17,409 nucleotides of DNA from a virus. Lineage: Duplodnaviria > Heunggongvirae > Uroviricota > Caudoviricetes. Positions within the stretch are counted from its first letter, which is position 1, and every line of letters begins with the position of its first letter. The DNA lies in IMG/VR virus record IMGVR_UViG_2585427784_000004, positions 1 to 17,409 of that record. The stretch is one strand, 5' to 3'. The notes beneath the pieces were generated by a model. It did no database searches. It was not told the origin of the DNA and was given only the letters and a program-made list of their open reading frames with translations. Of this stretch, positions 1,054 through 17,409 are shown piece by piece. A program made the translations under genes and the position numbers.

Positions 1054-1241
1054 AAAAAATGCCCTCCAATAGAGAGCATTTTTACTGTATGTATAACCAG
1101 TGTCAATGTATGAAATCCTGCGACCATACATCTCACTGAAGCCATAATGAAGTAGGCTATTCTTTTTGCTATGTGATCATGTAACTTTTGCGGTTAACCT
1201 GTGGCTCATTTTTATTTTAGGCGCAGATATAAAAGCAAAAG

Positions 1242-1433
1242 TTATCGTGAGTTTTTAGTACAGATTTTTTTGGATTTACTAATAGTTCCATCATTGCAAA
1301 CGAATTTGCCATCAGAGGTACAGTGAGAAACACCTCCCTTTTTCCCTGAGCAGGGATAATTTCTAGCATAGGTAGCTAGTGGGTTTAATAACAAAGAACA
1401 TGACAAAACCACAAAAAATACCTTACCAAGCAT
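1242..1433 (-). CDS. Small (63 aa) predicted secreted, Cys- and Lys-rich protein of unknown function, sitting between cI and int
   Basis: ATG (rc of 1431-1433) preceded by GGGAGG with about 5 nt spacing. N-terminal hydrophobic signal-like segment [23 protein letters not shown], then [40 protein letters not shown]. Local DNA is AT-rich relative to int and cI. Confidence 0.5.
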
Positions 1434-1448
1434 AATTTCCTCCCGGTA

Positions 1449-2018
1449 CTATTTAACATACTTGACTGTTAAACTTATAATTTTACCAATTATTTCAATG
1501 TCTTCTATCTTACATTCAAAGGCTCTGTTTCCACCCTCGACGAAGATTCTTCCACCGGGTAAACGAGTAATGTCACGGATCGTTATTTCGCCATCAATAC
1601 TTATTACCCATTTACCATCACGTATATCATCAAATTCCTTATCACAAATAAATTCAGAATTATTATCTGTGATTACAAAAAGATTCTTGAATGCCGACGG
1701 TAGAAATTCTCTATCGAAAATATAAAAACCGTCTTCACACAAGGCCCCATCAGATAATACATATTTAGCAACTTCCATAGTATTTGTATTACCTGAAGTT
1801 TGCTTTGAACCATGCCCGGTTGTGAGCCAATTAAGCGAGGTGCCTGTTTCAAGGGCGCACTGGATTACCCATTCTGCTGGGAATGAGTCACGCATGTAGC
1901 GTGTGGCGAGTGTACTTTTAGAGATTCCTAAATGATCGCACAACGCCTGTCGAGTCTTGAATCCATAAGCTTCTACCATGCGCTCTATGGCGCCTCGTCC
2001 GCCTTTCTCCAAATTCAT
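1449..2018 (-). CDS. cI: Phage 186-type CI immunity repressor (N-terminal HTH, C-terminal oligomerisation domain)
   Basis: 189 aa from ATG (rc of 2016-2018) with GGAG upstream. Sequence ...AYGFKTRQALCDHLGISKSTLATRYMR...CALETGTSLNWLTTGHG... fits the Phage_CI_repr family pattern. Divergent from the cox/apl-cII operon. Confidence 0.85.
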   Translation of the reverse strand: MNLEKGGRGAIERMVEAYGFKTRQALCDHLGISKSTLATRYMRDSFPAEWVIQCALETGTSLNWLTTGHGSKQTSGNTNTMEVAKYVLSDGALCEDGFYIFDREFLPSAFKNLFVITDNNSEFICDKEFDDIRDGKWVISIDGEITIRDITRLPGGRIFVEGGNRAFECKIEDIEIIGKIISLTVKYVK

Positions 2019-2042
2019 GGTCACTCCAAGTGAACTTTTATC

Positions 2043-2071
2043 TTGACGATTTCACTGTGCGATCGTATGTT
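2043..2071 (+). promoter_or_regulatory. Candidate rightward lytic promoter (pR-like): TTGACG - 17 nt - TATGTT, in the cI / apl switch region
   Basis: -35 TTGACG at 2043-2048 and -10 TATGTT at 2066-2071. Flanked by inverted hexamers GTGAAC (2030-2035) and GTTCAC (2078-2083) that could be operator half-sites. Position is upstream of apl/cII. Confidence 0.35.
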
Positions 2072-2143
2072 TATGGTGTTCACAAAATACAAACGATCCG
2101 TATTCGTCCTGATTAATCATCATTAAACGAGGAATGTTGCATC

Positions 2144-2365
2144 ATGAGACCTAACATTTCAATCACTCTTACCACGCCTCATGTGACTATTGAACGCTAT
2201 AGCGAGCTGACAGGGCTATCCATCGATACCATCAATGACATGTTGGCTGATGGACGCCTTATCCGTCACCGTCTGCGCAAAGATAAAAAACGCGAAAAAG
2301 TGATGATCAACATAGCAGCAATGACCGTTGATGCGCTTTCAGAATGCAATCTAAACCTTAATTAG
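2144..2365 (+). CDS. Cox/Apl-type excisionase and transcriptional regulator (small DNA-binding protein)
   Basis: 73-aa ORF, first gene of the rightward operon immediately opposite cI. GAGGAA 9 nt upstream of ATG 2144. Basic C-terminal half ([15 protein letters not shown]). Assignment rests on position and size in the 186/P2 switch, not on a verified alignment. Confidence 0.65.
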
Positions 2366-2397
2366 TTCGATTCTGAAATACATCAGAGGCATTGACC

Positions 2398-2907
2398 ATG
2401 TTTGATTACCAAGTTTCCAAACATCCACATTTTGATGAAGCCTGTCGTGCATTTGCACTGCGCCACAATCTGGTGCAACTGGCAGAACGTGCAGGCATGA
2501 ATGTGCAGATTCTGCGGAACAAGCTGAACCCAGCTCAGCCTCATTTATTAACCGCACCAGAAATCTGGCTGCTTACCGATCTGACTGAAGATTCAACGCT
2601 GGTAGATGGTTTTCTGGCACAGATTCATTGTCTGCCATGTGTACCGATTAATGAGGTGGCAAAAGAGAAACTGCCACATTACGTCATGAGTGCAACCGCA
2701 GAGATCGGGCGTGTTGCTGCAGGTGCGGTGTCTGGCGATGTAAAAACCTGTGCCGGTCGTCGTGATGCTATCAGCAGCATTAACTCTGTAACACGACTGA
2801 TGGCGCTGGCGGCTGTTTCATTGCAGGCCCGTTTACAGGCTAATCCTGCGATGGCGAGTGCAGTTGATACCGTGACTGGCCTCGGTGCTTCATTTGGTTT
2901 GCTGTGA
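2398..2907 (+). CDS. cII: Phage 186-type CII (lysogeny-establishment transcription activator)
   Basis: 169 aa from ATG 2398 (GAGG 9 nt upstream). Sequence [49 protein letters not shown]...[26 protein letters not shown]... matches my recollection of the 186/Fels-2 CII family. Same size as 186 CII. Confidence 0.8.
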
Positions 2908-2914
2908 GGTGCTT

Positions 2915-3115
2915 ATGCTGACGAAAGAACCATCATTTGCATCGCTGCTGGTTAAACAAAGCCCGGCAATGCATTACGGTCACGGCTGGATCATGGGGGA
3001 GGATGGTAAACGCTGGCATCCGTGCCGTTCACAAGATGAATTGCTGGCAGAACTATCTACGAAAAAACGGGGGAACAAATGGCTATTGAAGGCACTGCGG
3101 CGACTGTTCCATTAA
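2915..3115 (+). CDS. Small early-region protein (66 aa); position corresponds to 186 fil (host cell-division inhibitor), identity not verified
   Basis: ATG 2915 preceded by GAGG (2906-2909). The ORF-track start at 2885 is a GTG and less likely. Immediately downstream of cII. Confidence 0.5.
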   Translation: MLTKEPSFASLLVKQSPAMHYGHGWIMGEDGKRWHPCRSQDELLAELSTKKRGNKWLLKALRRLFH

Positions 3116-3420
3116 GCCCCGGTGAACGCCTGAATGGACTTAATCACATTGCGGAGTTAAGGGCGAAAGTTTTTGGCCTGAATATTGAGTCAGAGCTTGA
3201 GCGGTTTATTAAAGATATGCGTGATTCACGGGATATTAATAGCGAACAAAATAAACGGGCACTGGCTGCCATATTCTTTATGGCAAAAATTCCAGCTGAA
3301 CGTCATAGCATCAGCATTAATGAGCTGACCACTGACGAAAAGCGGGAGTTGATTAAAGCAATGAATCATTTTCGTGCAGTGGTGAGCTTATTTCCCAGAC
3401 GGCTAACCATGCCGAATTAA
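3079..3420 (+). CDS. Hypothetical early-region protein (113 aa)
   Basis: ATG 3079 with GGGGGA upstream. Overlaps the 3' end of the preceding ORF by 37 nt in another frame. Protein-like composition (ELTTDEKRELIKAMNHF). No family recognised. Confidence 0.5.
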   Translation: MAIEGTAATVPLSPGERLNGLNHIAELRAKVFGLNIESELERFIKDMRDSRDINSEQNKRALAAIFFMAKIPAERHSISINELTTDEKRELIKAMNHFRAVVSLFPRRLTMPN

Positions 3421-3487
3421 CCAACTAATGAAATTAATGGCGTAAACCCGCCGGGCATCCCTTTATCTAAATTCAGGAGAATTGATT

Positions 3488-3721
3488 ATGCGTAATATTG
3501 AAACCCTCTCGACCAAAACCGGACCGGATGACGCAGGGCTTAATATTTTACTGACAGAGGCTCGTCTGGAAGAACGCCGGGCAAGGGCTGAAGCAATGGC
3601 AGCTCGCCTTGATAGCCTGGCGTGTCATATCACATCCCGCCAGCTAACCCACGTCGAAGCGGCAGAACTGCTTCGTGTGACTGCTGAAGCAATCCAGAAC
3701 GAAGCGCAGGAGATCCACTAA
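3488..3721 (+). CDS. Hypothetical early-region protein (77 aa), predicted helical
   Basis: ATG 3488 with AGGAGA 7 nt upstream. The TTG at 3482 in the ORF track is less likely. Stop TAA overlaps the next start (TAATG). Confidence 0.55.
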   Translation: MRNIETLSTKTGPDDAGLNILLTEARLEERRARAEAMAARLDSLACHITSRQLTHVEAAELLRVTAEAIQNEAQEIH

Positions 3722-3948
3722 TGGCTGATGCAATGGATCTCGTACAGCAGCGCGTTGAAGAAGAACGCCAACGCCATATCCGTGCTGCCCGTGCCAAAAC
3801 GCCGGGCGTGTCCCGCGTGCTTTGCATTGAGTGTGAAGCGCCAATTCCGCCAGCACGCCGCCGTGCCATTCCGGGTGTGCAGCTTTGCATTACCTGTCAG
3901 GAAATCGCAGAGCTGAAAGGCAAACATTACAACGGAGGTGCTGTATGA
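3721..3948 (+). CDS. TraR/DksA-family C4 zinc-finger protein
   Basis: 75 aa with CIEC...16 residues...CITC spacing (CxxC-N17-CxxC-like) typical of the TraR/DksA zinc finger. Start overlaps the upstream stop and the stop overlaps the dam start (ATGA), implying translational coupling. Confidence 0.75.
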   Translation: MADAMDLVQQRVEEERQRHIRAARAKTPGVSRVLCIECEAPIPPARRRAIPGVQLCITCQEIAELKGKHYNGGAV

Positions 3949-4802
3949 GCACCATCCTGAAATGGGCGGGAAATAAAACTGCCATAATGTCCGAACTAAA
4001 AAAACATCTTCCTGCTGGCCCGCGACTGGTTGAACCTTTCGCGGGTTCCTGTGCTGTGATGATGGAGACGGATTATCCCAGCTATCTGGTTGCGGATATT
4101 AATCCTGATTTAATCAACCTCTATAAAAAGGTTGCCGCTGATTGTGAATCGTTTATATCTCGCGCCAGAGTTTTATTTGAGATCGCAAACAGGGAGGTGG
4201 CTTATTACAACATAAGGCAGGAGTTTAATTACTCAACTGAAATTACTGATTTCATGAAAGCGGTATATTTCCTGTATCTCAATCGTCACGGTTACCGTGG
4301 TTTATGTCGCTATAACAAGAGCGGGCATTTCAACATTCCCTACGGTAATTATAAAAATCCATATTTCCCTGAAAAAGAAATTCGCGCATTTGCAGAAAAG
4401 GCCCAGCGAGCAACGTTTATCTGCGCCAGCTTTGATGAAACGCTGGCGATGTTGAAGGCGGGGGATGTGGTGTATTGCGATCCGCCGTATGACGGTACGT
4501 TTTCCGGCTATCACACTGACGGCTTCACTGAAGATGACCAGTATCACCTGGCATCTGTTCTTGAACATCGGTCATCAGAAGGACATCCGGTCATTGTTTC
4601 TAACAGTGACACATCCCTGATCCGTTCGCTGTATCGCAATTTTACTCACCACTACATCAAGGCAAAACGCAGCATCGGTGTGGCAGCTGGCGAGGGTAAA
4701 TCAGCAACAGAAATCATTGCTGTTTCCGGGCCGCGCTGCTGGGTGGGATTTGATTATTCGCGTGGCGTGGATAGTTCTGCCGTGTACGGAGTACGTGCAT
4801 GA
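3945..4802 (+). CDS. dam: DNA adenine (N6) methyltransferase, Dam-like (GATC class presumed)
   Basis: From ATG 3945 (GGAGG upstream): [11 protein letters not shown]... N-terminal motif, catalytic DPPY ([12 protein letters not shown]), and [20 protein letters not shown]. About 285 aa. The 20-codon upstream extension in the ORF track overlaps the TraR gene and is probably untranslated. Confidence 0.85.
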
Positions 4803-7213
4803 GTCATGCCGATATGAACAACTGCTGCGGCTTTAACGAAGCTGCCGCATCGTTCTCATGGAACAGCTCGAAAAAGGCCATTAACCCTTATCTGGACCCG
4901 GTGGAAGTTGCGCCGGTTTCTACGCTTTCAAACCTGATCACTCTGTACGCTGCCGATAACGAGCAGGAACAGCTGCGCCGTGAGGCGCTGAGTGATCAGG
5001 TCTGGGAGCGTTATTTCTTTAATGAATCCCGTGATCCTGTCCAGCGCGAAATGGAACAGGATAAGCTCATTAGTCGGGCAAAGCTGGCGCATGAGCAGCA
5101 GCGTTTTAATCCGGATATGGTCATTCTGGCGGACGTCAACGCCCAGCCTTCCCATATCAGCAAGCCGCTGATGCAACGTATTGAATACTTCAGCAGCCTG
5201 GGCAGGCCAAAGGCTTATTCCCGCTATTTACGTGAGACGATTAAGCCATGTCTGGAACGACTGGAGCATGTACGCGACAGTCAGCTATCTGCATCTTTTC
5301 GCTTTATGGCAAGCCATGAAGGGCTGGACGGCCTGCTGATCCTGCCTGAAATGAGTCAGGATCAGGTGAAACGCCTGTCCACCCTGGTAGCTGCGCATAT
5401 GAGTATGTGCCTTGATGCCGCTTGTGGCGATTTGTATGCCACCGATGACGTTAAGCCAGAAGAAATCCGCAATACATGGGAAAGGGTGGCAGCGGAAACC
5501 CTGCGTCTGGATGTCATCCCGCCTGCGTTTGAGCAACTCCGTCGGAAAAGAAACCGCCGTAAACCCGTGCCCTATGAACTCATTCCGGGTTCGCTGGCGC
5601 GTATGTTGTGCGCCGACTGGTGGTATCGGAAATTATGGAAGATGCGTTGCGAATGGCGGGAAGAGCAGTTGCGTGCTGTCTGCCTTGTCAGCAAAAAAGC
5701 ATCTCCCTATGTCAGCTATGAAGCCGTGTTGCATAAACGTGAGCAGCGCCGTAAGTCGCTGGAGTTTTTCCGTTCTCATGAACTGGTGAACGAAGACGGC
5801 GACACGCTAGACATGGAGGATGTGGTAAACGCCAGCAGCAGCAACCCTGCGCATCGCCGCAATGAGATGATGGCCTGTGTTAAAGGTCTGGAGCTTATCG
5901 CGGAAATGCGCGGTGACTGCGCCGTTTTCTACACCATCACCTGTCCGTCACGTTTCCATTCCACGCTAAATAACGGCAGGCCCAACCCGACCTGGACAAA
6001 TGCGACGGTAAGACAAAGCAGCGATTATCTGGTCGGTATGTTTGCTGCATTTCGTAAGGCGATGCACAAAGCCGGGTTGCGCTGGTATGGCGTGCGGGTG
6101 GCTGAGCCGCATCACGACGGCACAGTTCACTGGCACCTGTTGTGTTTCATGCGCAAAAAAGACCGCCGCGCCATTACAGCATTGTTGCGTAAGTTTGCTA
6201 TCCGTGAAGACCGCGAGGAGCTGGGCAATAACACGGGGCCGCGCTTTAAGTCTGAGCTGATTAACCCGCGCAAAGGAACGCCGACAAGCTACATAGCGAA
6301 ATACATCAGTAAGAACATTGACGGGCGTGGTCTGGCTGGCGAGATCAGCAAGGAAACGGGTAAATCTCTGCGTGATAACGCTGAATACGTGAATGCCTGG
6401 GCGTCTTTGCATCGTGTTCAGCAATTCCGCTTCTTTGGCATTCCGGGGCGTCAGGCTTACCGTGAACTGCGATTGCTGGCTGGTCAGGCGGTAAGGCAAA
6501 AGGGGGACAAAAAAGCAGGTGCGCCGGTACTGGATAACCCGCGCCTTGATGCCATCCTGGCTGCTGCTGATGCTGGTTGTTTTGCCACCTACATCATGAA
6601 GCAGGGCGGCGTACTGGTTCCCCGTAAATATCACCTCATCAGAACCGCTTATGAAATCAACGAAGAGCCGACCGCCTATGGCGATCACGGCATTCGTATT
6701 TATGGCATCTGGTCACCCATTGCAGAGGGCAAGATCTGCACTCATGCAGTGAAGTGGAAAATGGTTCGTAAAGCCGTTGACGTTCAGGAGGCGGCAGCCG
6801 ACCAGGGCGCTTGCGCCCCTTGGACTCGTGGCAATAACTGTCCCCTTGCTGAAAATTTGAACCAACAAGGGAAAGACAAATCAGCTGATGGGGACTCCAT
6901 AACGGATATTACCCGTATGAATGACAAGGAGTTGCACGATTACCTGCACAGTATGAGCAAAAAAGAGCGCCGGGAACTGGCTGCAAGGTTACGCCAGGTG
7001 AAACCGAAACGGCGTAAAGACTACAAACAGCGAATTACAGACCATCAGCGACAGCAGCTCGTCTATGAACTGAAGTCCAGGGGATTTGATGGCAGCGAGA
7101 AAGAAGTCGATTTGCTCCTTCGCGGCGGCAGTATTCCGTCAGGAGCAGGCCTGCGTATCTTCTATCGGAACCAGCGTCTGAAGGAAGATGATAAGTGGCG
7201 GAACCTGTATTAA
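4799..7213 (+). CDS. Replication initiation endonuclease gpA (rolling-circle HUH nickase, P2/186 A family)
   Basis: 804-aa ORF. HUH-type motif TVHWHLLCF (H-W-H at 6128-6136) and paired catalytic tyrosines YIAKYISK (Tyr codons 6290-6292 and 6302-6304), as in P2 gpA. ATG overlaps the dam stop. Confidence 0.9.
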
Positions 7214-7307
7214 TTACGCGGGTTAACAATTCGTGCTCTTAATAATACCAGGCATATCAGGCCGATGAACGTAAAAAAACGTTTTACATCAGTAAGATTA
7301 TTATATA

Positions 7308-7323
7308 CTGTAAATATAAACAG
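7308..7323 (+). promoter_or_regulatory. LexA (SOS) box CTGTAAATATAAACAG overlapping the promoter of the tum/dinI-like operon
   Basis: Exact CTGT-N8-ACAG palindrome with an AT-rich centre, 43 bp upstream of the first ORF. -10-like TATACT at 7304-7309 overlaps its 5' edge. Analogous to the LexA-controlled p95-tum arrangement of phage 186. Confidence 0.6.
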
Positions 7324-7365
7324 TGGTTATGCATACAGTATTGTTTTGGTGTCATAGGAGGAAAG

Positions 7366-7554
7366 ATGCAGGACTATTTTTTGGAGTCTTTGAAGCTCCA
7401 GCGCATTGATTTTTTTCTTAAGCTTGTAGCGGCTAGTGAGTGTAGTGATGAAGAGAAGGGGCTGGCTCTGCAGTGGGTTTCTGAACTGACAGATGAACTC
7501 ATGGCAAAAATCAGAAGCCACGAATACAACCGCTCAATGGATGTCATCAGCTGA
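7366..7554 (+). CDS. Small protein (62 aa) in the SOS operon; possibly the N-terminal part of a Tum-like antirepressor
   Basis: ATG 7366 preceded by AGGAGG (7356-7361). Directly downstream of the LexA box. Ends 10 nt before the DinI-like ORF, whose reading frame is already open from 7493. Confidence 0.5.
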   Translation: MQDYFLESLKLQRIDFFLKLVAASECSDEEKGLALQWVSELTDELMAKIRSHEYNRSMDVIS

Positions 7555-7564
7555 GGTGACTTTT

Positions 7565-7798
7565 ATGCGCATTGAAATAATGATCGATAAAGAGCAGAAG
7601 ATTAGCCAGTCTACCCTGGACGCCCTTGAATCCGAGCTTTACCGCAATCTGCGCCCCCTGTATCCCAAAACGGTAATTCGCATTCGCAAAGGTAGCTCTA
7701 ACGGTGTGGAACTAACCGGACTGCAACTGGATGAAGAAAGAAAACAAGTGATGAAAATTATGCAGAAGGTGTGGGAGGACGACAGCTGGCTGCATTAA
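7565..7798 (+). CDS. DinI-family protein (SOS-regulated RecA modulator / Tum C-terminal-like domain)
   Basis: 77 aa from ATG 7565 (GAGGTG 5 nt upstream). MRIEIMIDKEQKISQSTLDALESELYRNL...RKQVMKIMQKVWEDDSWLH aligns by eye with E. coli DinI (MRIEVTIAK...DALAGELSRR...KQRISEILQETWESADDW). Confidence 0.8.
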   Translation: MRIEIMIDKEQKISQSTLDALESELYRNLRPLYPKTVIRIRKGSSNGVELTGLQLDEERKQVMKIMQKVWEDDSWLH

Positions 7799-7806
7799 GA
7801 AACGTT

Positions 7807-7840
7807 GCCCCCAGGAGGATTCATTCTGATGGGGGCTAGT
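7807..7840 (+). terminator. Weak candidate hairpin after the DinI-like gene
   Basis: GCCCCCA (7807-7813) pairs with TGGGGGC (7830-7836) around a 16-nt loop, followed by TAGTTTGG. The loop is long and the U tract poor. Confidence 0.25.
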
Positions 7841-8204
7841 TTGGGTAACGAGTGAAACGAGGCGTAAGGTGGGCGGCCATTTTGATAAGTGATTGTACGA
7901 TTTGTGTTGTGAGTTCAACGGGTCGATGCAACGCTATCCTTAATCAAGGGCACGTTGCTCATACCCATCGATGCAATGAAAATCCATACTCATGGGGAAG
8001 ACCAGAATGTCCCTGCCTTTTTCATTTTGTTCAGCACATGCACTATGGCCATTGCCTTCCCAAGCTAGCTATCGTAATCACTCAGCGTCAGTAAACTACT
8101 GAAAAATTGTTTTACCTTGTATATCAATAATGCCAAATCATACCCAAAAAATAGAAAATAATTAGATCGACAGGCAGAAGGCAATGTGAATAATCTTAAA
8201 AACC

Positions 8205-8234
8205 TTGACTGCCAGTGAGGTTTGGTTCTATAAA
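8205..8234 (+). promoter_or_regulatory. Candidate sigma70 promoter for darT-darG: TTGACT - 18 nt - TATAAA
   Basis: -35 TTGACT at 8205-8210 and -10 TATAAA at 8229-8234, about 30 nt upstream of the darT RBS AAAGGATGAG (8251-8260). Confidence 0.4.
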
Positions 8235-8265
8235 TAGACTTACGACTTTGAAAGGATGAGTTGAA

Positions 8266-8847
8266 ATGAGCGAAAGGAAAAGAATTGAAGATCAGTATCT
8301 TCTCTATCATTTAACATGTATGGATAATCTACCTAGTATTTTAGACACAGGATTAAGATCTCGTGCATCAGTAAAAGGTGAGTTTGTTGATGTGGCCGAC
8401 GGTGAAATAATAACAGGACGCGAAGCATTAAATTTGCAAACAATGGTTCCTTTTCATTTCTTTACTAAGAATCCATTTGATGGAAGAGTCCTGAAAGATC
8501 ATAAGGAAAAATCATTTTGTATTATTTCGGTTTGTCGGGCATTTGCCAAAGAAAATGGTTGGAAAGTTATCCCTAAACATCCATTATCCACCAGTTCTGT
8601 TATAGACCTCTTAGATTATGAACAAGGAATGGCCCAAATTGACTGGGAGCTTATGAATATAAGGGATTATAAAAATGCAGAATGCAAATCTGTATGTATG
8701 GCTGAGTGTTTATCAAGTGTAACGGTCGAGCCGAAAAATTTCCATTGCATCTTTGTCAAAAATGATAACGAAAAAAAATATGTTGAAAGGTTGATAAAAC
8801 AACAAGGATTAAGTATATTGATAACGATCAACACTTATATGTTCTAA
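8266..8847 (+). CDS. darT: DarT-like DNA ADP-ribosyltransferase toxin (DUF4433-type)
   Basis: 193 aa. N-terminal LLYHLTCMDNLPSILDTGL matches the DarT hallmark (..YH.T...NLP.IL..GL) as I remember it from Thermus DarT, and a C-terminal ...CMAECLSSV... Glu-containing motif sits where the catalytic Glu would be. Followed 4 nt later by a macrodomain gene. AT-rich codon usage. Confidence 0.75.
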   Translation: MSERKRIEDQYLLYHLTCMDNLPSILDTGLRSRASVKGEFVDVADGEIITGREALNLQTMVPFHFFTKNPFDGRVLKDHKEKSFCIISVCRAFAKENGWKVIPKHPLSTSSVIDLLDYEQGMAQIDWELMNIRDYKNAECKSVCMAECLSSVTVEPKNFHCIFVKNDNEKKYVERLIKQQGLSILITINTYMF

Positions 8848-8851
8848 TTCT

Positions 8852-9823
8852 ATGATTAAGTATGCAAGCGGAAATCTTCTAAACTCTACATCGCAAGCTC
8901 TTGTGAATGCTGTAAACTGCCAAGGAGTCATGGGAAAGGGTATTGCTTTGGCTTTTAAAGAAACTTTTCCCTATAATTTCGAAGTTTATAAGAGAGCATG
9001 CGCCACTGGTACAATGAAAATTGGACAGGTTTTAATTGTAGAGGAAAAGGGAAAAATAATTGTAAACTTTCCCACTAAAGATAGTTGGAGAAAAAAATCA
9101 ACATATGATTTTATCTCGCAAGGCCTTGAATCTTTAGCAAAAATTATAGACGAAAAAAAAATTACATCAATATCAATACCACCTTTAGGCTGTGGTAATG
9201 GGGGCCTCGATTGGAATAAGGTTGAGGCTCTTATTTTAAAAACTTTTCAAAATTTAGATAATGTTGATGTGGTAATTTATCCGCCTGCAACTAACAATCA
9301 ACTTTCAAAAAATAAAAATGTTATTAATGCTAAGCATCTTTTGGTTCACTACGCCTATGGAAAATTAAAAGTTAAGCAAAAATATTCCCTTTATACAGTT
9401 TTTTATATTTGCGAATGTATTGAGAAAGCAAATCTTTTTTTATTCGATTTTAAACATGGTCGGCCATACTCTTCTGAGTTAGAAAATATTATGAAGGATA
9501 TAGCAAACCTTAAAGTTGAGTTGCAAGGAGATTTTGATGCTTTTATTGAAGATTATATTAATACTCATCAATCCAAAGAGTTACAAACCGAGTTTGGTAA
9601 ACTAATCTCAACTTTAAATCCAAGTATAAGTTTGCTCAATGCTCTTAAAAATAAGATTGATTATACAGATAGCGTACATGTGATTACGAGAATTGCTAAA
9701 GAAAAAGATCATGGCTTGCATATTGACAATTTCAAAGAATATGAAAATATTGTGCAGCATTTAATTAAAAATGGATTGGTAATCGAAGATATTTTTAACG
9801 AACTAAAAATAAAGGGAAGTTAG
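8852..9823 (+). CDS. darG: DarG-like antitoxin: N-terminal macrodomain (ADP-ribosyl hydrolase) plus C-terminal domain
   Basis: 323 aa. The first ~150 aa carry macrodomain signatures (NAVNCQGVMGKGIALAF..., ...ISIPPLGCGNGGLDWNKV...). The C-terminal ~170 aa is helical and K/E-rich, consistent with a DarT-binding domain. Gene order toxin then antitoxin. Confidence 0.8.
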   Translation: MIKYASGNLLNSTSQALVNAVNCQGVMGKGIALAFKETFPYNFEVYKRACATGTMKIGQVLIVEEKGKIIVNFPTKDSWRKKSTYDFISQGLESLAKIIDEKKITSISIPPLGCGNGGLDWNKVEALILKTFQNLDNVDVVIYPPATNNQLSKNKNVINAKHLLVHYAYGKLKVKQKYSLYTVFYICECIEKANLFLFDFKHGRPYSSELENIMKDIANLKVELQGDFDAFIEDYINTHQSKELQTEFGKLISTLNPSISLLNALKNKIDYTDSVHVITRIAKEKDHGLHIDNFKEYENIVQHLIKNGLVIEDIFNELKIKGS

Positions 9824-10375
9824 TAGCGCTATTTTCAATTTTTTTGCTGAAATTGCGCATGCACACTCTCACGCATTATAGATGCGGCGTTAATCCCGCC
9901 AGGAGTGTTGTTTAATAAATTGAACTATTTCTGCATTGAAGGATCAACTTACGCATTCGCTGACAACGCAGGCACTCTCCTGGCTAAGCAGAAATTCAGA
10001 GTAACCAACTGGCACTTTTACAACAATTTTATTATCAGTTGCGGCTCCATGACTTTCTGGTGGGATAACAAAGCAATTAAGGCGTGGTATTGTAAGTATC
10101 CCGCATAATCATGCTAGTAACATTTGTCCCCCATGTAACCTAATTAAGGCAACTTCCGCTCTTCGCTCACAGTGAACCTCCATGTTTGTAAACCCGTATA
10201 TTTCGTTTTTTAAGTGGTCATTCAGATACGGATTTTCACTTCTCTTGGCTGTGCATGACTATGCTGCATGAAATTGCATGATCGTTTGAGGATCGTTTTT
10301 GCTGAGGCCCCCCAGAACTGGCGGGCTTTCGCTTATGTCATGCAGGTGCATGAAAATCACTGCATAAAGCGGGCA

Positions 10376-10394
10376 GGCGTGGCGGGGATACGAG
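10376..10394. other. cos-like motif (possible remnant of the cohesive-end site)
   Basis: GGCGTGGCGGGGA (10376-10388) is identical to the first 13 nt of the 186 cohesive end as I recall it (GGCGTGGCGGGGAAAGCAT; P2 GGCGAGGCGGGGAAAGCAC), then diverges. Upstream are five TGCATGA-like repeats (10252-10370) that could be terminase-recognition elements. Rests on recalled sequences only. Confidence 0.25.
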
Positions 10395-10477
10395 CGCGCG
10401 CTGGAGGGATAAATGGAATTGAAAATGTACCTTCTTAGAGATAACCTTCGCTAAAACTTTATTACTAAGGAGTGATA

Positions 10478-12220
10478 ATGAGTACCTGGAACCAAGCCTA
10501 TTCTGCAAGAGAAGATTTGAAATCGTATGGTGATAATGGACTGGCTTTGTTTGCGTTAGCATTACATTTCAGAATTGATGACATTGATAGTGTCGCAGCA
10601 GAGTCCATTACCGATGGACATGACGATAAGAAATGTGACCTTGTGTATATTAATGAAGAAGAAGAATTTGCTGTACTTGCTCAATGCTATTTCTCAAGCA
10701 AAGATAGACAGGAAGCTCCAGCAAATAAAGCGAGTGATCTTAATATTGCTTTAGCATGGCTTCTGCAAAGAGATTTGCATGATGTACCCGATAGAATAAA
10801 ATCTTCTGCTCAACAGATACGGACATCAATCAAACAAGGGAAAATTAAAACTCTGTACGTTTGGTATGTTCATAACTTACCATCTTCAACAAATGTGGCT
10901 CAAGAGCTAATTACGGTTCAGCAGACAGCAACAACTATTTTAAAACATGATTTTGAAGATGCTAAAATACAAGTGCATGCAATGGAAGTAGGCACTGAAA
11001 AGTTGACGGAATGGTATAGTGAATCACTATCACCAATACTGGTTGATGAGATTTTCAATATTAAAGTCAGTGATGGTGGCTATGAAATAAAAGGAGATAA
11101 TTGGAATGCATTCTGTACTACCATTCAGGGAAGAGATTTAGCTAGAGCGTACAAAAAGCATAAATTAAAAATATTTTCAGCAAATGTTAGAGACTACCTT
11201 GGATCAAGGTCATCTGATTCAAATATCAATAATGGTATCCGTAACAGTGCGGAAAATTCAGCATCAGAATTTTGGGCATACAATAATGGCGTAACTGTTT
11301 TGGTTCATGAATATAAATTCAATGAAGCATCAAAGAATCTTGAAATCAGAGGGATGTCAATAGTTAATGGAGCACAGACAACAGGTGCTTTAGGAACGCT
11401 GCCACGATTACCTCCAGAATCAGTTAAAGTCCAAGCTAGATTTATAAAAGTCAAAGATGCGGATGCTGATCTAATTCAGAATATAATTCAGTATAATAAC
11501 AGTCAGAATAAAGTTGAAGCATCTGATTTCAGAAGCACAGACAAAATTCAAAAACGACTTAAAAATGAATTTGCTTCTATTCCTGATGCTGAATATGATG
11601 GAGGAAGACGAGGAGGTGCTGAAAGTGTCATTCGTCGAAAAACTAATCTACTGCCTTCTTATACTGTTGGTCAAGCTTTGATGAGTTTCCATGGAGAGCC
11701 GACGGTAGCTTATAATCAGCGATCTGCAATTTGGACTAATGACTCTCATTATTCTAAGATTTTTAATGACAGTACAAAAGCTTCACATATTGTTTGTGCG
11801 TATTCTCTCATGCGGTGTATTGAGAACAAGAAAATAGCTTTGGCAAAGAAAGATACTCTTTCAAAAAATGATAGCGCTCAATTGGGATATCTCAGGCATC
11901 GTGGTTCAATACCTTTATTGTGCTCGGCTATTGCCGAATGTTTGGAAAACTTTTTGGGCCGTCCCGTTCCTAATTTATTTAGAGTTTCGTTTGGAAGTAC
12001 GGTTTCTCCTTCTCAGGCTGAAAGTATTTGGGAGCCAATTGTAGATGTGTGTCTGGCTTTAAGTAATCAGTTGCTGCCTGCACTGGTTGAAGGAGGGTTG
12101 AAAAGTCCTACAAAAGTTAAAGATTGTATATCAAATTTTTCACAGCTTATTACTGCAACGGCCCAAATGAACCAGCCTGTATATGAGGCATTTGAGAAAA
12201 AAATCAAATCCGCATTCTAA
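10478..12220 (+). CDS. 580-aa orphan cargo protein; candidate single-gene abortive-infection/defence protein, tentatively AIPR-like
   Basis: ATG 10478 with TAAGGAG upstream. Long, clean ORF with AT-rich codon usage. Internal motifs FWAYNNGVTVLVHEY and MSIVNGAQTTGALG resemble what I recall of AIPR / DGQHR-type Abi proteins; the N-terminal segment is acidic (DGHDDKKCDLVYINEEEEFAVLAQ). Followed by a strong terminator. Family assignment is unverified. Confidence 0.8.
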   Translation: MSTWNQAYSAREDLKSYGDNGLALFALALHFRIDDIDSVAAESITDGHDDKKCDLVYINEEEEFAVLAQCYFSSKDRQEAPANKASDLNIALAWLLQRDLHDVPDRIKSSAQQIRTSIKQGKIKTLYVWYVHNLPSSTNVAQELITVQQTATTILKHDFEDAKIQVHAMEVGTEKLTEWYSESLSPILVDEIFNIKVSDGGYEIKGDNWNAFCTTIQGRDLARAYKKHKLKIFSANVRDYLGSRSSDSNINNGIRNSAENSASEFWAYNNGVTVLVHEYKFNEASKNLEIRGMSIVNGAQTTGALGTLPRLPPESVKVQARFIKVKDADADLIQNIIQYNNSQNKVEASDFRSTDKIQKRLKNEFASIPDAEYDGGRRGGAESVIRRKTNLLPSYTVGQALMSFHGEPTVAYNQRSAIWTNDSHYSKIFNDSTKASHIVCAYSLMRCIENKKIALAKKDTLSKNDSAQLGYLRHRGSIPLLCSAIAECLENFLGRPVPNLFRVSFGSTVSPSQAESIWEPIVDVCLALSNQLLPALVEGGLKSPTKVKDCISNFSQLITATAQMNQPVYEAFEKKIKSAF

Positions 12221-12224
12221 CTAA

Positions 12225-12256
12225 AAGAAGGCCTTGTAAGAGGCCTTCTTGATATT
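12225..12256. terminator. Rho-independent terminator, probably bidirectional, between the 580-aa gene and the convergent portal fragment
   Basis: Perfect 10-bp stem AAGAAGGCCT (12225-12234) / AGGCCTTCTT (12241-12250), 6-nt loop, then GATATTTTA. An A run lies on the opposite side. Confidence 0.6.
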
Positions 12257-12281
12257 TTACTGATCAGCGAACATATTGTCG

Positions 12282-12662
12282 TCATAATGAGTATGTCGCA
12301 AAACGGATAATTTCATCTTTCAACCATCTATTTAGTTCCTGTAGCCGTTTCTGTAGCGGCATCAATTCGTTACGAACAAAAACGCAACTGGCTTTCTCTA
12401 CATCCCCAAACCCTCCAACATTATTAGGCATAATCCCCATCATCTGAGGCGGCACACGGTGTGCCGCCATCATGTCATCGCGGCTGACATTTTTGATATT
12501 CAGAAACTCATCCTTCGCCGCGACTTCTGATATCTGGCGGTATTGCCCGTCTGCGCACAGCAGGCCGGGGGCCAGATTGCTGTGGGACAGGTCGATGTCC
12601 ACCTTATCGGCTTTGTTGCGCCCACGGTTGAACAGCGCACCGGACCAGAACGGATACGACGC
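12282..12662 (-). pseudogene. C-terminal fragment (~125 codons) of the phage portal gene (gpQ-like); N-terminal two thirds deleted
   Basis: Minus-strand frame open through 12282-12746. Protein-like C-terminal sequence ...RVPPQMMGIMPNNVGGFGDVEKASCVFVRNELMPLQKRLQELNRWLKDEIIRFATYSL. The first 28 codons of the tracked ORF are antisense to gpU and not credible. Orientation and position next to cos match P2 Q. Portal identity is from memory. Confidence 0.5.
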
Positions 12663-13148
12663 ATGATGATGGTGCTGGGATTGTACGTGTTTATGCTGCG
12701 CACCGTGCCGTATCAGGAGCTGCAGTATCAACGCAGCTGGCGACATGCGGCAAACAGCCGGGTAAACCGACGTCCGTCCACGCAGTTTCTGGGACCGGAC
12801 AACGACATGCTGACGCTTTCCGGTGTTCTTATGCCGGAGATAACAGGTGGCAGGCTGTCGTTGCTGGCACTGGAGCAGATGGCAGAACAGGGGAAAGCAT
12901 GGCCCCTGATTGAAGGCAGCGGCACGATTTATGGCATGTATGTGATTGAGGGACTGAATCAGACTAAAACGGAGTTTTTCCGCGACGGTATGCCGCGCCG
13001 GATTGAGTTCACCCTGTCGCTCAAAAGGGTGGATGAATCATTGTCCGATATGTTCGGTGATCTCAGTGCGCAACTGAATAATCTGCAGGACACGGCAACG
13101 TCTGCCTTAAGCGATATCAGTAAAACGGTGGGAGGGCTGCTGTCGTGA
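12663..13148 (+). CDS. Tail protein gpU (P2 U family)
   Basis: About 160 aa from the ATG triplet at 12663-12671. Sequence MVLGLYVFMLRTVPYQ...RSWRHAANSRVNRRPSTQFLGPDNDMLTLSGVLMPEITGG...EGSGTIYGMYVIEG... Stop overlaps the gpD start (GTGA). The 40 upstream codons in the ORF track are read-through over the portal fragment. Confidence 0.8.
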   Translation: MMMVLGLYVFMLRTVPYQELQYQRSWRHAANSRVNRRPSTQFLGPDNDMLTLSGVLMPEITGGRLSLLALEQMAEQGKAWPLIEGSGTIYGMYVIEGLNQTKTEFFRDGMPRRIEFTLSLKRVDESLSDMFGDLSAQLNNLQDTATSALSDISKTVGGLLS

Positions 13149-14245
13149 ATTTCAGCTCTGAACTGCTTAACAAAGGCAACAAAACTCCCGCATTCAGCAT
13201 CAGTATTGAGGGCAGGGATATCACCACTGTGCTGGATAACCGCCTGATGAGTCTGACGCTGACGGACAATCGGGGCTTTGAAGCGGACCAGCTTGATCTG
13301 GAGCTGGACGACGCCGATGGAAAAATAGCGCTGCCGCGCCGTGGTGCGGTCATTACGCTGGCGCTGGGCTGGAAGGGGCAGCCGCTTTTCCCGAAAGGGG
13401 CATTCACGGTGGACGAGATTGAACACACTGGCGCACCGGACCGCCTGACTATCCGGGCGCGAAGTGCTGATTTTCGGGAAACGCTGAATCCCCGCCGTGA
13501 AAAGTCGTGGCACAAGACCACTGTCGGGGAAGTGGTGAAGGAAATAGCTGTGCGGCACAAACTGAAGATGGCACTGGGTAAAGACCTGTCAGATAAACCC
13601 GTGGAACATATAGACCAGACCAATGAGAGTGACGGCAGTTTTCTGATGCGGCTGGCGCGCCAGTACGGTGCTATTGCGTCGGTGAAAAATGGCAATCTGT
13701 TATTCATCCGGCAGGGACAGGGTAAAAGCGCCAGCGGTAAACCACTACCGGTGATCACTATCACACGTAAGGACGGCGACAGTCACCGCTTTACCCTGGC
13801 AGATCGCGGAGCCTATACGGGCGTAATTGCCAGTTGGTTGCATACCCGCGAACCCGCGAAGAAAGAAAGCACCACGGTGAAGCGTAAGCGCAGGACTAAG
13901 AAGCAGAAGAAAGAGCCGGAAGCGAAGCAGGGCGATTACCTGGTGGGTACGGATGAAAACGTGCTGGTACTTAATCGCACCTATGCCAACCGGAGCAACG
14001 CCGAACGGGCGGCAAAAATGCAGTGGGAACGCCTGCAACGCGGCGTTGCGTCATTCTCGCTACAACTGGCGGAAGGGCGGGCAGATCTCTACACGGAAAT
14101 GCCAGTGAAAGTCAGTGGCTTTAAACAGCTGATAGATGATGCGGAATGGACCATTACGACTCTGACACATACCGTCAGCCCGGATAACGGTTTTACGACC
14201 AGTCTGGAGCTTGAAGTGAGGATTGATGATTTCGAAATGGAATGA
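13145..14245 (+). CDS. Tail protein gpD (P2 late gene D family)
   Basis: 366-aa ORF directly after U and before ogr, the P2/186 order F-E-T-U-D-ogr. Carries a basic insert KKESTTVKRKRRTKKQKKEPEAKQ. Start is GTG at 13145, overlapping the U stop. Confidence 0.85.
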   Translation: MNFSSELLNKGNKTPAFSISIEGRDITTVLDNRLMSLTLTDNRGFEADQLDLELDDADGKIALPRRGAVITLALGWKGQPLFPKGAFTVDEIEHTGAPDRLTIRARSADFRETLNPRREKSWHKTTVGEVVKEIAVRHKLKMALGKDLSDKPVEHIDQTNESDGSFLMRLARQYGAIASVKNGNLLFIRQGQGKSASGKPLPVITITRKDGDSHRFTLADRGAYTGVIASWLHTREPAKKESTTVKRKRRTKKQKKEPEAKQGDYLVGTDENVLVLNRTYANRSNAERAAKMQWERLQRGVASFSLQLAEGRADLYTEMPVKVSGFKQLIDDAEWTITTLTHTVSPDNGFTTSLELEVRIDDFEME

Positions 14246-14270
14246 TTCTTCGCAATGGAGAACTTTTAAG

Positions 14271-14298
14271 TTTGCAAAATGGAATAATGCGGTATCAT
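14271..14298 (+). promoter_or_regulatory. Candidate ogr promoter: TTTGCA - 16 nt - TATCAT
   Basis: -35-like TTTGCA at 14271-14276 and -10-like TATCAT at 14293-14298, upstream of the ogr RBS GGGGAG (14320-14325). Confidence 0.3.
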
Positions 14299-14335
14299 TA
14301 TTGTGAATTTAGCAAAAATGGGGAGAACTCGAAAA

Positions 14336-14554
14336 ATGATGATTTGCCCACTGTGTGGAAGTGCCGCCCATACTCGCAGCAGTTTTCAGGTATCTTCATT
14401 GACCAAAGAGCGTTACAACCAGTGCCAGAACATTAACTGCAGCCATACTTTTGTTACCCATGAAACTTTTGTTCGTTCGATTGCAACGCCAAAAGAGTCA
14501 AATCCGGTTCAGCCGCATCCAATGAAATCAGGACAGGTAGCGCTCTCTCTTTGA
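14336..14554 (+). CDS. ogr: Ogr/Delta-type zinc-finger late-gene transcription activator
   Basis: 72 aa from ATG 14336: MMICPLCGSAAHTRSS...ERYNQCQNINCSHTF... matches P2 Ogr (MFHCPLCQHAAHARTS...ERYHQCQNVNCSATF) including the C2C2 finger and length. The upstream GTG at 14303 in the ORF track is unlikely. Confidence 0.85.
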   Translation: MMICPLCGSAAHTRSSFQVSSLTKERYNQCQNINCSHTFVTHETFVRSIATPKESNPVQPHPMKSGQVALSL

Positions 14555-14634
14555 CGCTGCCGCCATTTTGTCGCCATCGTTAAAAAACAGTGCTTCTAAC
14601 ATCATGATCTTAAACAGCTTAAATTTCAGGCAAC

Positions 14635-14677
14635 AAAAAACCCATCAACCTTGAACCGAAATGGCGGGGTTGATGGG
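14635..14677 (-). terminator. Rho-independent terminator downstream of ybjL
   Basis: 10-bp perfect inverted repeat CCCATCAACC (14641-14650) / GGTTGATGGG (14668-14677) with a 17-nt loop. On the minus strand it is followed by TTTTTTGTTG (plus-strand A run 14635-14640). Confidence 0.5.
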
Positions 14678-14789
14678 CTCCACAAAATGGGGACATCAAA
14701 GAAAAGCAGTGGCACTAATTAAGACTGATGCCCTGCGGAAAAGTTCTGCGGTTGTGCAAAAAAATTTCATTTTCAGGGCAACTTCAGTT

Positions 14790-16475
14790 TTATCCTAATC
14801 CTGGCCATACCATGACGATGATTGTCCCTGCCAGCGTCAGCAGGACGTTGGCGATTGCATAGGTGCCCGCATAGCCCAGCGCCGGGATGTTACTGCGAGC
14901 TGTATCACTGATGATCTCCATTGCCGGCGCGCAGGTACGTGCGCCCATCATTGCGCCGAACAACAGCGCGCGGTTCATTCGCAATACATAAGCACCGAAC
15001 AAGAAACAGATAACCACGGGCACCAGACTGACAATCAATCCGGCAATCAACATCTGACCGCCAATCGCGCCCAGGCCGTTATTAATACCGCTACCGGCGC
15101 TCAGACCAACGCCTGCCATAAACACCATCAAGCCGAACTCTTTCACCATGCTTAATGCACCCTGCGGAATGTAACCGAAGGTCGGGTGGTTAGCACGCAT
15201 AAAGCCCAGCATAATTCCGGCGAATAACAACCCGGCAGCGTTCCCCATGCCGAAACTGAATGTGCTGAACTGGAAGGTGATCATCCCGATCATCAGCCCA
15301 ATAACAAAGAAGGCGCAGAATGCCAGCAGGTCAGTGACCTGGCTGTGAATCGAGATAAAGCCGATGCGATCGGCGATGGTTTTTACGCGGCGGGCATCGC
15401 CGCTGACTTGTAAAACGTCACCTTTGTTAAGCACGACGTTGTCATCTATCGGCATCTCAATCTGGCTACGAATGACGCGGTTAAGGAAGCAACCGTGATC
15501 GGTCAACTTCAGTTGTGCGAGACGTTTACCTACAGCGTTATGGTTTTTAACGACCACTTCTTCAGTGACGATACGCATGTCGAGAAGGTCACGATCGAAA
15601 ACTTCTTTACCGTTACGGAAGCTGGGATCGAGTCGGGCATGGGCGTCGGGATAGCCTACCAACGCTATTTCATCGCCCATTTGTAGCACGGCATCACCGT
15701 CTGGATTTGCCAGAATCCCGTTACGTCGAATACGTTCAATGTAGCAGCCGGTTTGTCGATAAATACCCAGTTCACGCAGATTTTTGCCGTCGGTCCAGGC
15801 CACCAGTTCCGGGCCGACGCGATAGGCGCGGATCACCGGTAAATAAACCTTACGGTTGGCATCAGTGTCCAGGCCACGTTCGCGGGCGATTTGCTGGGCG
15901 CTGGTCTGTAAGTCCTGATGCTGCAATTTCGGCAAGTAACGCGCACCAACAATCAAACTCACCAGACCGATTAAATAGGTTAAGGCATACCCGAGGCTCA
16001 GATTATCCAGTGCCAGTGAGAGCTGCCTGCTTTCCATGCCGGAATGACGCAGTGTATCGCCAGCACCGACCAGAACCGGTGTCGACGTCATAGAGCCTGC
16101 TAACATACCGGCCGTCAGGCCAATATCCCAGCCAAACAGCTTACCTAACCCTAAGGCGATCACCAGCGCACTGCCAACCATCACCAGTGCTAACATTAGG
16201 TAATTTTTCCCATCGCGAAAAAAAATGGAAAAAAAGTTCGGTCCGGCTTCGACCCCGACGCAGAAAATAAACAGCATAAAGCCAAGATTAAGCGCATCGG
16301 TGTTAATGCTGAAATGTTGTTGGCCTAATAACAGCGATACGACTAAAACGCCAATGGAATTACCCAGTTGGATCGAACCAAGTCGTAACTTTCCGAGACA
16401 TAGCCCAAGCGCGAGGACCACAAATAATAACAGAATGTAATTCCCATTTAACAATTCGGCGACGTTTATATTCAC
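14790..16475 (-). CDS. ybjL: Putative transport protein YbjL (AAE / YidE-YbjL family, duplicated transmembrane and TrkA-C domains)
   Basis: 561 aa, GTG start. Sequence [46 protein letters not shown]... recognised as E. coli YbjL. Gene order ybjL-ybjM-grxA as in E. coli K-12. Confidence 0.9.
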
Positions 16476-16744
16476 GGAGGCTAACTTCTTGTTTACTAGT
16501 AAGCTGTTGAAAGAAATGGTAATTTACGATAATGTTTTTTACCAGAATTCAGGGCGCAGATTCATTCAGCGCACCTAAACGATAGTAAAGTAACAATATA
16601 TTTTACTAGTGTAATCACATTAGGTATCAACGGCTATATGAATTGCGTTGGCCTATATTAGCATGGAATGCGAAGCGGCTTTATCTTACTGAACGCCACA
16701 CTGGCGAAAAATGTGTTCGATAGACGCAGTGTCAGGAGGAACGA

Positions 16745-17122
16745 GTGAAACATAAACAACGTTGGGCGGGGGCAATCTGCTGTTTTGTCCTCTTCATTGT
16801 GGTGTGCCTTTTTCTGGCGACGCACATGAAAGGCGCTTTTCGGGCTGCCGGGCATCCTGAAATCGGCTTGCTATTTTTCATTCTTCCTGGAGCAGTCGCC
16901 AGCTTCTTTTCACAGCGTAGAGAAGTCCTGAAACCTCTGTTTGGCGCAATGCTGGCGGCACCCTGTTCGATGCTCATTATGCGGCTGTTTTTTTCACCGA
17001 CGCGCTCATTCTGGCAAGAGCTGGCATGGTTATTAAGTGCGGTGTTCTGGTGTGCGCTGGGGGCACTGTGTTTCTTATTTATCAGTAGTTTGTTTAAACC
17101 ACAGCACAGAAAAAATCAGTAA
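16745..17122 (+). CDS. ybjM: Inner-membrane protein YbjM
   Basis: 125 aa, GTG start with AGGAGG 9 nt upstream. MKHKQRWAGAICCFVLFIVVCLFLATHMKG..., hydrophobic. Position between ybjL and grxA. Confidence 0.85.
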   Translation: MKHKQRWAGAICCFVLFIVVCLFLATHMKGAFRAAGHPEIGLLFFILPGAVASFFSQRREVLKPLFGAMLAAPCSMLIMRLFFSPTRSFWQELAWLLSAVFWCALGALCFLFISSLFKPQHRKNQ

Positions 17123-17141
17123 AGCCCTCAACGCGAGGGCT
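17123..17141. terminator. Shared hairpin between convergent ybjM and grxA
   Basis: AGCCCTC (17123-17129) / GAGGGCT (17135-17141) with a 5-nt loop immediately after the ybjM stop. T run on the minus strand (plus-strand AAAAA at 17111-17115). U tract imperfect. Confidence 0.4.
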
Positions 17142-17151
17142 TGTCAGACGA

Positions 17152-17409
17152 TCAGGCGTCCAGATTTTCTTTCACCCATGCAGCAAAATCGGTATAGCCG
17201 CCGATATGTTGCTGATCGACAAAAATCTGCGGCACGGTTTCTACGGGTTTACCTGCCTTTTGTTGTAGATCTTCTTTAGTGATCCCTTCCGCACGAATAT
17301 CTACATAGTGATACTGAAAATCATCGTGTTCATTGCTCAATTTCTCAGCCAGATCTTTTGCACGCACACAGTAAGGGCAACCCGGACGACCAAAAATAAC
17401 GGTTTGCAT
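17152..17409 (-). CDS. grxA: Glutaredoxin 1
   Basis: 85 aa: MQTVIFGRPGCPYCVRAKDLAEKLS... with CPYC active site. ATG is the reverse complement of the last three bases of the window. Confidence 0.9.
   Translation of the reverse strand: MQTVIFGRPGCPYCVRAKDLAEKLSNEHDDFQYHYVDIRAEGITKEDLQQKAGKPVETVPQIFVDQQHIGGYTDFAAWVKENLDA

Follow-up and report, generated by a model that had tools for sequence, protein, structure and literature searches.

An AIPR/AbiU-family gene as a candidate stand-alone anti-phage cassette next to cos in a defective P2-like prophage

We have analyzed a stretch of 17,409 nucleotides from a Caudoviricetes virus (IMG/VR record IMGVR_UViG_2585427784_000004, positions 1 to 17,409), which we call the window. 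It contains a gene for a 580 amino acid protein, located between a cos site and the remnant of a portal gene (Table 1). This protein is a member of AIPR/AbiU, a known family of single-gene anti-phage proteins, and already has a name in PGAP and PHROGs. We hold, with moderate confidence, that it is a stand-alone anti-phage gene, forming a self-contained cassette to the right of cos, whose product would act as a ligand-gated nuclease protecting the lysogen.

Several profiles agree in the family assignment. The Pfam AIPR profile (PF10592) gives 120.1 bits (cut-off 25, E=2e-34) over its positions 1–244 of 308. The PADLOC hidden Markov model for AbiU (PDLC02357) gives 118.7 bits (E=9.6e-35), only over profile positions 125–451 of 537, and phrog_1841, "Abi alpha-like abortive infection", is matched over nearly the full length (E=3.4e-245). 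The protein is identical, residue for residue, to RefSeq WP_001748167.1, found in two E. coli genomes and named "AIPR family protein" by PGAP, and the copy in Klebsiella P2-like phages differs at two residues. A Pfam scan finds AIPR in all 40 close relatives. Full-length homologues with 53–60% identity are found in Gamma- and Betaproteobacteria, Bacteroidota and Cyanobacteria. An exhaustive search detects 5,483 clusters (50% identity) at E<=1e-3, 302 of them at E<=1e-30. The gene is rarely found in E. coli: a gene covering at least 80% of the query is present in 17 of 5,426 complete genomes. Two Salmonella homologues are truncated, P0012 (406 amino acids, 94% identity) and P0106 (529 amino acids, 58% identity); the gene may thus be disrupted in some lineages.

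A first-pass annotation, made from the sequence without database searches, had called this protein an orphan. This term has to be abandoned, given the strong Pfam match, the thousands of homologues and the existing RefSeq name. The motifs it quoted (DGHDDKKCDLVYINEEEEFAV, YNNG and NGAQTTG) are all present, and its association of YNNG and NGAQT with AIPR/DGQHR-type Abi proteins was correct, as indicated by the PF10592 and PADLOC AbiU matches and by the published relationship between AIPR and DndB (PMC3506569). Among the Pfam models it mentioned, AIPR is matched, while DndB and HEPN are not. Scans of 40 family members at E<=10 give no Mrr_cat, DUF262, DndB, ParBc or HEPN, and a faint HSDR_N_2 match in two of the 40; the N-terminal 184 amino acids alone have no Pfam match.

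The open reading frame is long and uninterrupted, as had been described. By our own estimate, the probability of finding 580 stop-free codons by chance at 37% GC is about 1e-18. Comparison with an allele of 84% identity gives a dS of about 1.0 and a dN of 0.031. Judging from these substitutions, the gene is functional and under strong purifying selection, and no chance reading frame, because dN/dS (omega) is 0.03. This value, together with the identity of the protein to copies in intact prophages, excludes a pseudogene or decaying gene. Its GC content (0.37) differs from that of gpA, gpU and gpD (0.53–0.56); the adjoining DarT and DarG genes have 34% and 31%.

The cassette consists of a weak candidate promoter, a ribosome binding site, the coding sequence and a terminator. 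Both the ribosome binding site and the gene's own terminator had been pointed out in the first-pass annotation, and we find them. The "native promoter" which it took for granted is replaced by a weak candidate based on conservation: The TTGAAA and GATAAC blocks are both conserved in the allele with 84% identity (the second as GATAAT), and the spacer between them has diverged. We rate this pair as a weak candidate only, because its spacing is suboptimal; the predicted transcription start would be near 10452. On the minus strand, the hairpin after the gene also reads as a stem followed by TTTT, and it may terminate transcription in both directions.

An AlphaFold2 model was built from a 40-sequence alignment (mean predicted local distance difference test, pLDDT, 83; predicted template modelling score 0.72). 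The N-terminal domain has an alpha/beta restriction-endonuclease-like fold, with a structural match to FokI (2FOK), which excludes a HEPN-AIPR architecture, as does the absence of a HEPN match in Pfam. Its conserved residues are D46, D50, D54, Q69-C70-Y71, K84 and H132-N133. The "acidic N-terminal segment" of the first-pass annotation exists but was misread: It is the active-site motif of the PD-(D/E)xK domain. The nuclease site is non-canonical, with Q69-x-Y71 instead of QxK, and is conserved as tightly as would be expected of an active site. Tyrosine occupies the lysine position in 63 of 72 distant members, while K84 is found in 70 of them; D50, D54, Q69, Y71, K84 and the AIPR motifs persist even at 28% identity. 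K84 and K51/K52 are candidate substitutes for the canonical lysine.

The AIPR domain has the invariant motifs N236-x-R238, N269-N-G-x-T273, N297-G-A-Q-T301, R321, N341-x-Q-N344, D350-x-R352 and Y373/R377. When this domain alone is used in a structural comparison, the top six matches are all ParB/Srx proteins. The whole model gives nothing below E=0.1 in a Foldseek search of the PDB. Neither phmmer nor profile searches of PDB sequences give any meaningful match: No solved structure is related by sequence. In the model, N297-G-A-Q-T301 is placed at the turn from strand 287–297 to helix 299–306. Three segments have a pLDDT below 50: 11183–11218 (amino acids 236–247), 11501–11539 (342–354) and 11609–11617 (378–380). 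These are the very places of the family's most invariant motifs (NxRDYLGSRS, NSQNKVxAxDFRSTD and GGRRG), which suggests loops that become ordered on ligand binding.

The location of the gene is that of a known defence hotspot. In P2-like phages, the interval gpA-cos-gpQ has been defined as such a hotspot, and AIPR genes are found in the tables for both P2 and P4 loci (Rousset et al. 2022, PMC9122126). In a 2026 survey, AbiU is likewise recorded for P2 as well as P4 hotspots (PMC13586616). The gene in the window lies between gene A and portal gene Q, next to cos, in an interval whose content varies among related prophages. Both boundaries had been noticed in the first-pass annotation, as a cos-like site and a portal remnant, and both are real. 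About 1,250 E. coli genomes share nothing but the cos piece with the query (83–92% identity). Including its core, AAGCGGGCAGGCGTGGCGGGGA, this piece aligns with cos-proximal sequences of P4-like clones (Rousset 2022 Table S2). The exact P2 cos 19-mer is absent, even with up to three mismatches allowed, cos is established by alignment instead. Variable cargo starts at about 10403, 75 bp 5' of the ATG.

The window can be aligned collinearly, at 98.6–99.2% identity, to the intact P2-like prophage L001 from E. coli 2018-18.25PC. The order in L001 is integrase, C repressor, early genes, gpA replication endonuclease, a small open reading frame, DinI-like, DarT, macro/DarG and AIPR, followed on the opposite strand by portal Q and terminase P. 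The prophage in the window is a deletion remnant, because collinearity stops at about 12532, inside portal gene Q, and is followed by a terminase fragment, gpU, gpD and host genes (the small RNA gene rybB, a ybjL-like permease gene and ybjM). The head and lysis genes are entirely missing, as are most of those for the tail; the DarTG and AIPR cargo is intact.

Across cos from the AIPR gene, DarT and DarG form a complete toxin-antitoxin defence module, in agreement with the DarTG-like module of the first-pass annotation. In P2-like prophages, the AIPR gene always occupies the same position, between cos and Q, while the cargo to the left of cos differs: DarTG, a 225 amino acid hypothetical protein (WP_000700647.1), or SIR2 with an ATP-binding protein. 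For example, the identical AIPR protein is accompanied in E. coli 95-3322 by the hypothetical protein instead of DarTG, and the two-residue variant in Klebsiella phages has the same neighbour. An allele 94% identical in protein is found with SIR2 and the ATP-binding protein. Each side of cos thus behaves as a cassette slot of its own. Homologues with 55–59% identity in E. coli, Pseudomonas and cyanobacteria have no conserved partner gene around them. Their settings are an integrase/resolvase island (E. coli), an integrase island (Pseudomonas) and a site beside uvrA (cyanobacteria). The AIPR gene is an independent cassette, separate from DarTG, because its neighbours vary both in P2-like prophages and in distant genomes. 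It has no obligatory partner, as is the case for AbiU, and the single-gene factor in a P2 hotspot that had been proposed fits these data. A serine resolvase gene adjoins the homologues in the E. coli island (8172–8729 in L002-L004) and in the Pseudomonas integrase island (about 5000–5849 in L005-L007); it may mark a small mobile unit carrying the AIPR gene.

Lactococcal AbiU (AbiUi/AbiU1), attributed to Dai et al. 2001, is said to be the prototype of the Pfam AIPR family and of the AbiU type in PADLOC/DefenseFinder. AbiUi alone confers a weak, broad phage resistance with delayed phage transcription, and its AlphaFold2 model has an N-terminal FokI-like nuclease fold when compared with 1FOK (review PMC13064643). 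The window protein resembles it in being a single protein of about 580–590 amino acids with an AIPR core and an N-terminal FokI-like fold, carried by mobile elements. On the other hand, the host phylum is different, and the N-terminal catalytic region is not aligned in the profile; this comparison is made through the profile and the description in the review. One AbiU from Vibrio has been validated by experiment in a Vibrio host free of defences, and "Surt", a phage protein which inhibits AbiU, has been found (bioRxiv 10.1101/2024.06.14.598830). The Vibrio proteins (DS34 and relatives, Nahant collection) are also gammaproteobacterial single-gene AIPR proteins, with a Mrr-type N-terminal nuclease motif, NNGVT, VNGxQT and NSQ. 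Nevertheless, they have the canonical GGDxAIDG...QTK where the window protein has TDGHDDKKCD...QCY. A closer case in terms of location is pFR77, an AIPR gene from a P4 hotspot (E. coli E1167). It was cloned, was not validated against eight coliphages, and is not among the seven validated systems (Rousset et al. 2022, PMC9122126). It has the same architecture, a cos-adjacent P2/P4 hotspot location and a match to the PADLOC AbiU model, but it has the canonical QSK and only 22% identity with the window protein.

Other systems can be compared with the window protein in single domains. GmrSD, BrxU, SspE and DndI combine a DUF262 ParB/Srx-fold NTPase with a DUF1524 nuclease. Our protein has its domains in the opposite order, a PD-(D/E)xK nuclease instead of His-Me, and NGAQT instead of the DGQQR motif; with no Pfam match to DUF262 or DUF1524, membership in this group is excluded. 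DndB, a DGQHR regulator of DNA phosphorothioation, has an N-terminal domain which has been placed in the AbiU1/AIPR family (Makarova et al. 2012, PMC3506569), and this is the "DGQHR" link made in the first-pass annotation. However, the window protein has neither dnd genes nearby nor a Pfam DndB match, and its domain is fused to a nuclease. MzaE, the AIPR component of the five-gene candidate system MZA, shares the AIPR core (PADLOC MzaE, 3.8e-16; NCBIfam NF041935, 9.6e-19). We reject this identity: The score is 67.3 bits with a cut-off of 1050, about 150 residues are matched, and the neighbours are DarTG, cos and portal instead of MzaA-D.

We infer the defence activity of the window subfamily from its family membership. 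In the mechanism that we favour, the AIPR protein would be made in the lysogen. The invariant loops of its AIPR domain, rich in Asn, Gln, Thr and Arg, would bind a nucleotide or nucleic-acid cue appearing during infection. The domain would thus act as a switch, by analogy with the ParB/Srx-fold DUF262 domains in enzymes of the GmrSD/BrxU/SspE type. Binding of the cue would license the N-terminal nuclease, probably via oligomerisation as in FokI, which at an early stage of infection would cut the nucleic acid of the phage, and possibly that of the host. Early cutting would delay phage transcription, as has been reported for lactococcal AbiU, and the population of lysogens, and the prophage with it, would be protected. 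We propose only tentatively, and with more doubt than belief, the specific version in which the AIPR core is a ParB/Srx-type nucleotide or nucleic-acid switch gating a lysine-less PD-(D/E)xK nuclease with Q-x-Y and a relocated K84. The term AIPR does not occur in a 2025 PNAS survey of the ParB-CTPase fold. More speculatively still, the invariant Y71 might be a nucleophile or otherwise alter the chemistry of the nuclease.

Several observations weigh against this mechanism. The catalytic signature D...(D/E/Q)-x-K is incomplete: D54 and Q69 are present, and Y71 takes the place of the lysine. Activity of the putative nuclease is therefore uncertain. Binding of nucleoside triphosphates by the AIPR domain would be an analogy, because NGAQT has no Arg/His as found in the motifs GxxR and DGQ(Q/H)R. 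A scan with the sigma-70 consensus detects no promoter within the 75 bp that separate the ATG from cos. The distance to assayed proteins is also large, the identity of the window subfamily to assayed AIPR/AbiU proteins being only 22–31%. BLAST against the validated Vibrio AbiU aligns the AIPR core only (31% over 133 amino acids, E=9e-11), and pFR77 gave no protection against eight coliphages. Neither the positive results in Vibrio nor the negative ones with pFR77 can be transferred directly to the window subfamily, because of the low identity to pFR77, the core-only alignment with Vibrio and the canonical QxK in both.

Two alternatives keep a defence function and change the target, and we give a low probability to each. 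The protein might be a modification-dependent restriction enzyme, similar to type IV: The AIPR domain would read modified or non-self DNA, a FokI/MspJI-type nuclease would cut it, and the infected cell would survive, in contrast to abortive infection. The resemblance of MspJI and AspBHI to our protein is limited to the generic catalytic fold, Pfam scans of the protein and 40 relatives detect no SRA-like or other known reader of modified bases, and the weak, broad phenotype of lactococcal AbiU has been described as delayed transcription, not restriction (PMC13064643). The delay in phage transcription would fit an abortive-infection toxin directed at RNA or transcription, in which the N-terminal domain cuts RNA, or is catalytically dead (Lys to Tyr), with transcription being blocked through binding of the protein, so that the infected cell is arrested or dies. 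Other AIPR proteins have an N-terminal HEPN RNase instead of PD-(D/E)xK, suggesting an RNA-directed effector slot (PMC3506569), and the missing lysine points in the same direction. Nevertheless, the N-terminal fold is closest to DNA endonucleases, D50, D54, Q69 and K84 are near-invariant, as expected of a working metal-dependent site, and damage to the template could equally delay transcription.

A role outside defence is much less probable. As a maintenance or regulatory protein of the prophage, with a ParB/DndB-like DNA-binding domain, the protein could take part in partition, cos-proximal regulation or control of modification. Its putative ParB/Srx-like fold and the regulatory function of DndB (PMC3506569) would fit, and plasmid-partition genes take the place of defence genes in about one of four P2 hotspots (PMC9122126). 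However, homologues are found in unrelated mobile islands and chromosomal sites with no prophage, partition partner or dnd genes, the AIPR domain is fused to a nuclease fold, and an anti-phage phenotype has been demonstrated for members of the family (PMC13064643; bioRxiv 10.1101/2024.06.14.598830). In addition, the gene is kept intact in a prophage stripped of morphogenesis genes. We find it hardly credible that the AIPR protein forms a composite system with DarT-DarG. The two are neighbours, with cos in the 655 bp that separate them, and their GC content is low. Nevertheless, functional dependence is largely refuted by co-occurrence: The identical, two-residue-variant and 94% identical proteins are found with other cargo to the left of cos, and distant homologues have no DarTG. 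Moreover, the two loci are at opposite ends of the linear virion DNA.

As a genome feature this gene is routine, a member of a catalogued defence family in a catalogued hotspot. What remains of value is mechanistic: AIPR/AbiU is among the older Abi families, is very widespread, and has here a non-canonical nuclease site. The subfamily is well suited to biochemical and structural work, with 53–60% identity across phyla, small single-gene members and copies from intact prophages of E. coli and Klebsiella. If the combination of a ParB/Srx switch and a lysine-less nuclease were correct, the AbiU/AIPR mechanism could be approached with this compact, highly conserved subfamily as a tractable model; it comprises about 300 clusters at E<=1e-30, in a superfamily of over 5,000. 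Together with DarTG, the AIPR gene adds to the phage-resistance repertoire which a defective prophage can retain, of relevance for predicting host range in phage therapy.

Table 1. Features of the window and of related prophages (aa, amino acids; positions refer to the window unless another locus is named)
Feature	Position	Strand	Remarks
AIPR/AbiU-family gene	10478–12220	+	580 aa, identical to WP_001748167.1
N-terminal domain	10478–11026	+	aa 1–183, predicted FokI/Mrr-type PD-(D/E)xK nuclease fold
Central AIPR domain	11030–11887	+	aa 185–470 (Pfam match aa 233–451), putative ParB/Srx-like fold
C-terminal all-helical domain	11888–12217	+	aa 471–580; high AlphaFold2 confidence, lower conservation
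Candidate weak sigma-70 promoter	10419–10445	+	TTGAAA 10419–10424, 15-nt spacer, GATAAC 10440–10445
Shine-Dalgarno AAGGAG	10467–10472	+	Read from sequence; 5 nt before ATG; conserved in related loci
Intrinsic-terminator-like hairpin	12225–12260	+	11-bp GC-rich stem with T-run, between convergent AIPR and portal genes
P2/P4-type cos packaging region	10251–10402		Core near 10370–10392; left boundary of cargo cassette
Portal gene Q 3' remnant	12282 to ~12532	-	Right hotspot boundary; blastn with intact prophage L001; partial Pfam Phage_portal match, below cut-off
Terminase gene P fragment	12528–12656		130 bp, follows portal remnant
gpU	12543–13148
gpD	13145–14245
rybB (host small RNA gene)	14632–14710	-	Rfam RF00110, 105 bits; directly right of prophage
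DarT	8266–8847		193 aa, PADLOC 1.3e-36
DarG	8852–9823		323 aa, PADLOC 2.8e-80
Left-of-cos cargo, L001	10167–11724
Left-of-cos cargo, L011	4301–4978
Left-of-cos cargo, L012	1895–4794
Left-of-cos cargo, L013	5771–6448

Some minor features of the prophage should also be mentioned. DarTG is flanked by two small open reading frames, both negative in PADLOC: 7852–8094 (80 amino acids), with a sub-threshold match to a RING-like zinc finger, and 9905–10108 (67 amino acids), with no match. An unannotated open reading frame of 83 amino acids (14303–14554) is found between gpD and rybB. In a related genome the left flank is rcdA, which places the prophage between rcdA and rybB/ybjL. When positions 5836–6817 of L001 are compared with 4720–4916 of the window, L001 has about 0.8 kb extra, where an annotated hypothetical gene (273 amino acids) separates gpA from the DNA adenine methylase gene. 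In the window, the methylase-like open reading frame (3885–4802) abuts gpA (4799–7213), and the same arrangement is found in the Klebsiella phage.

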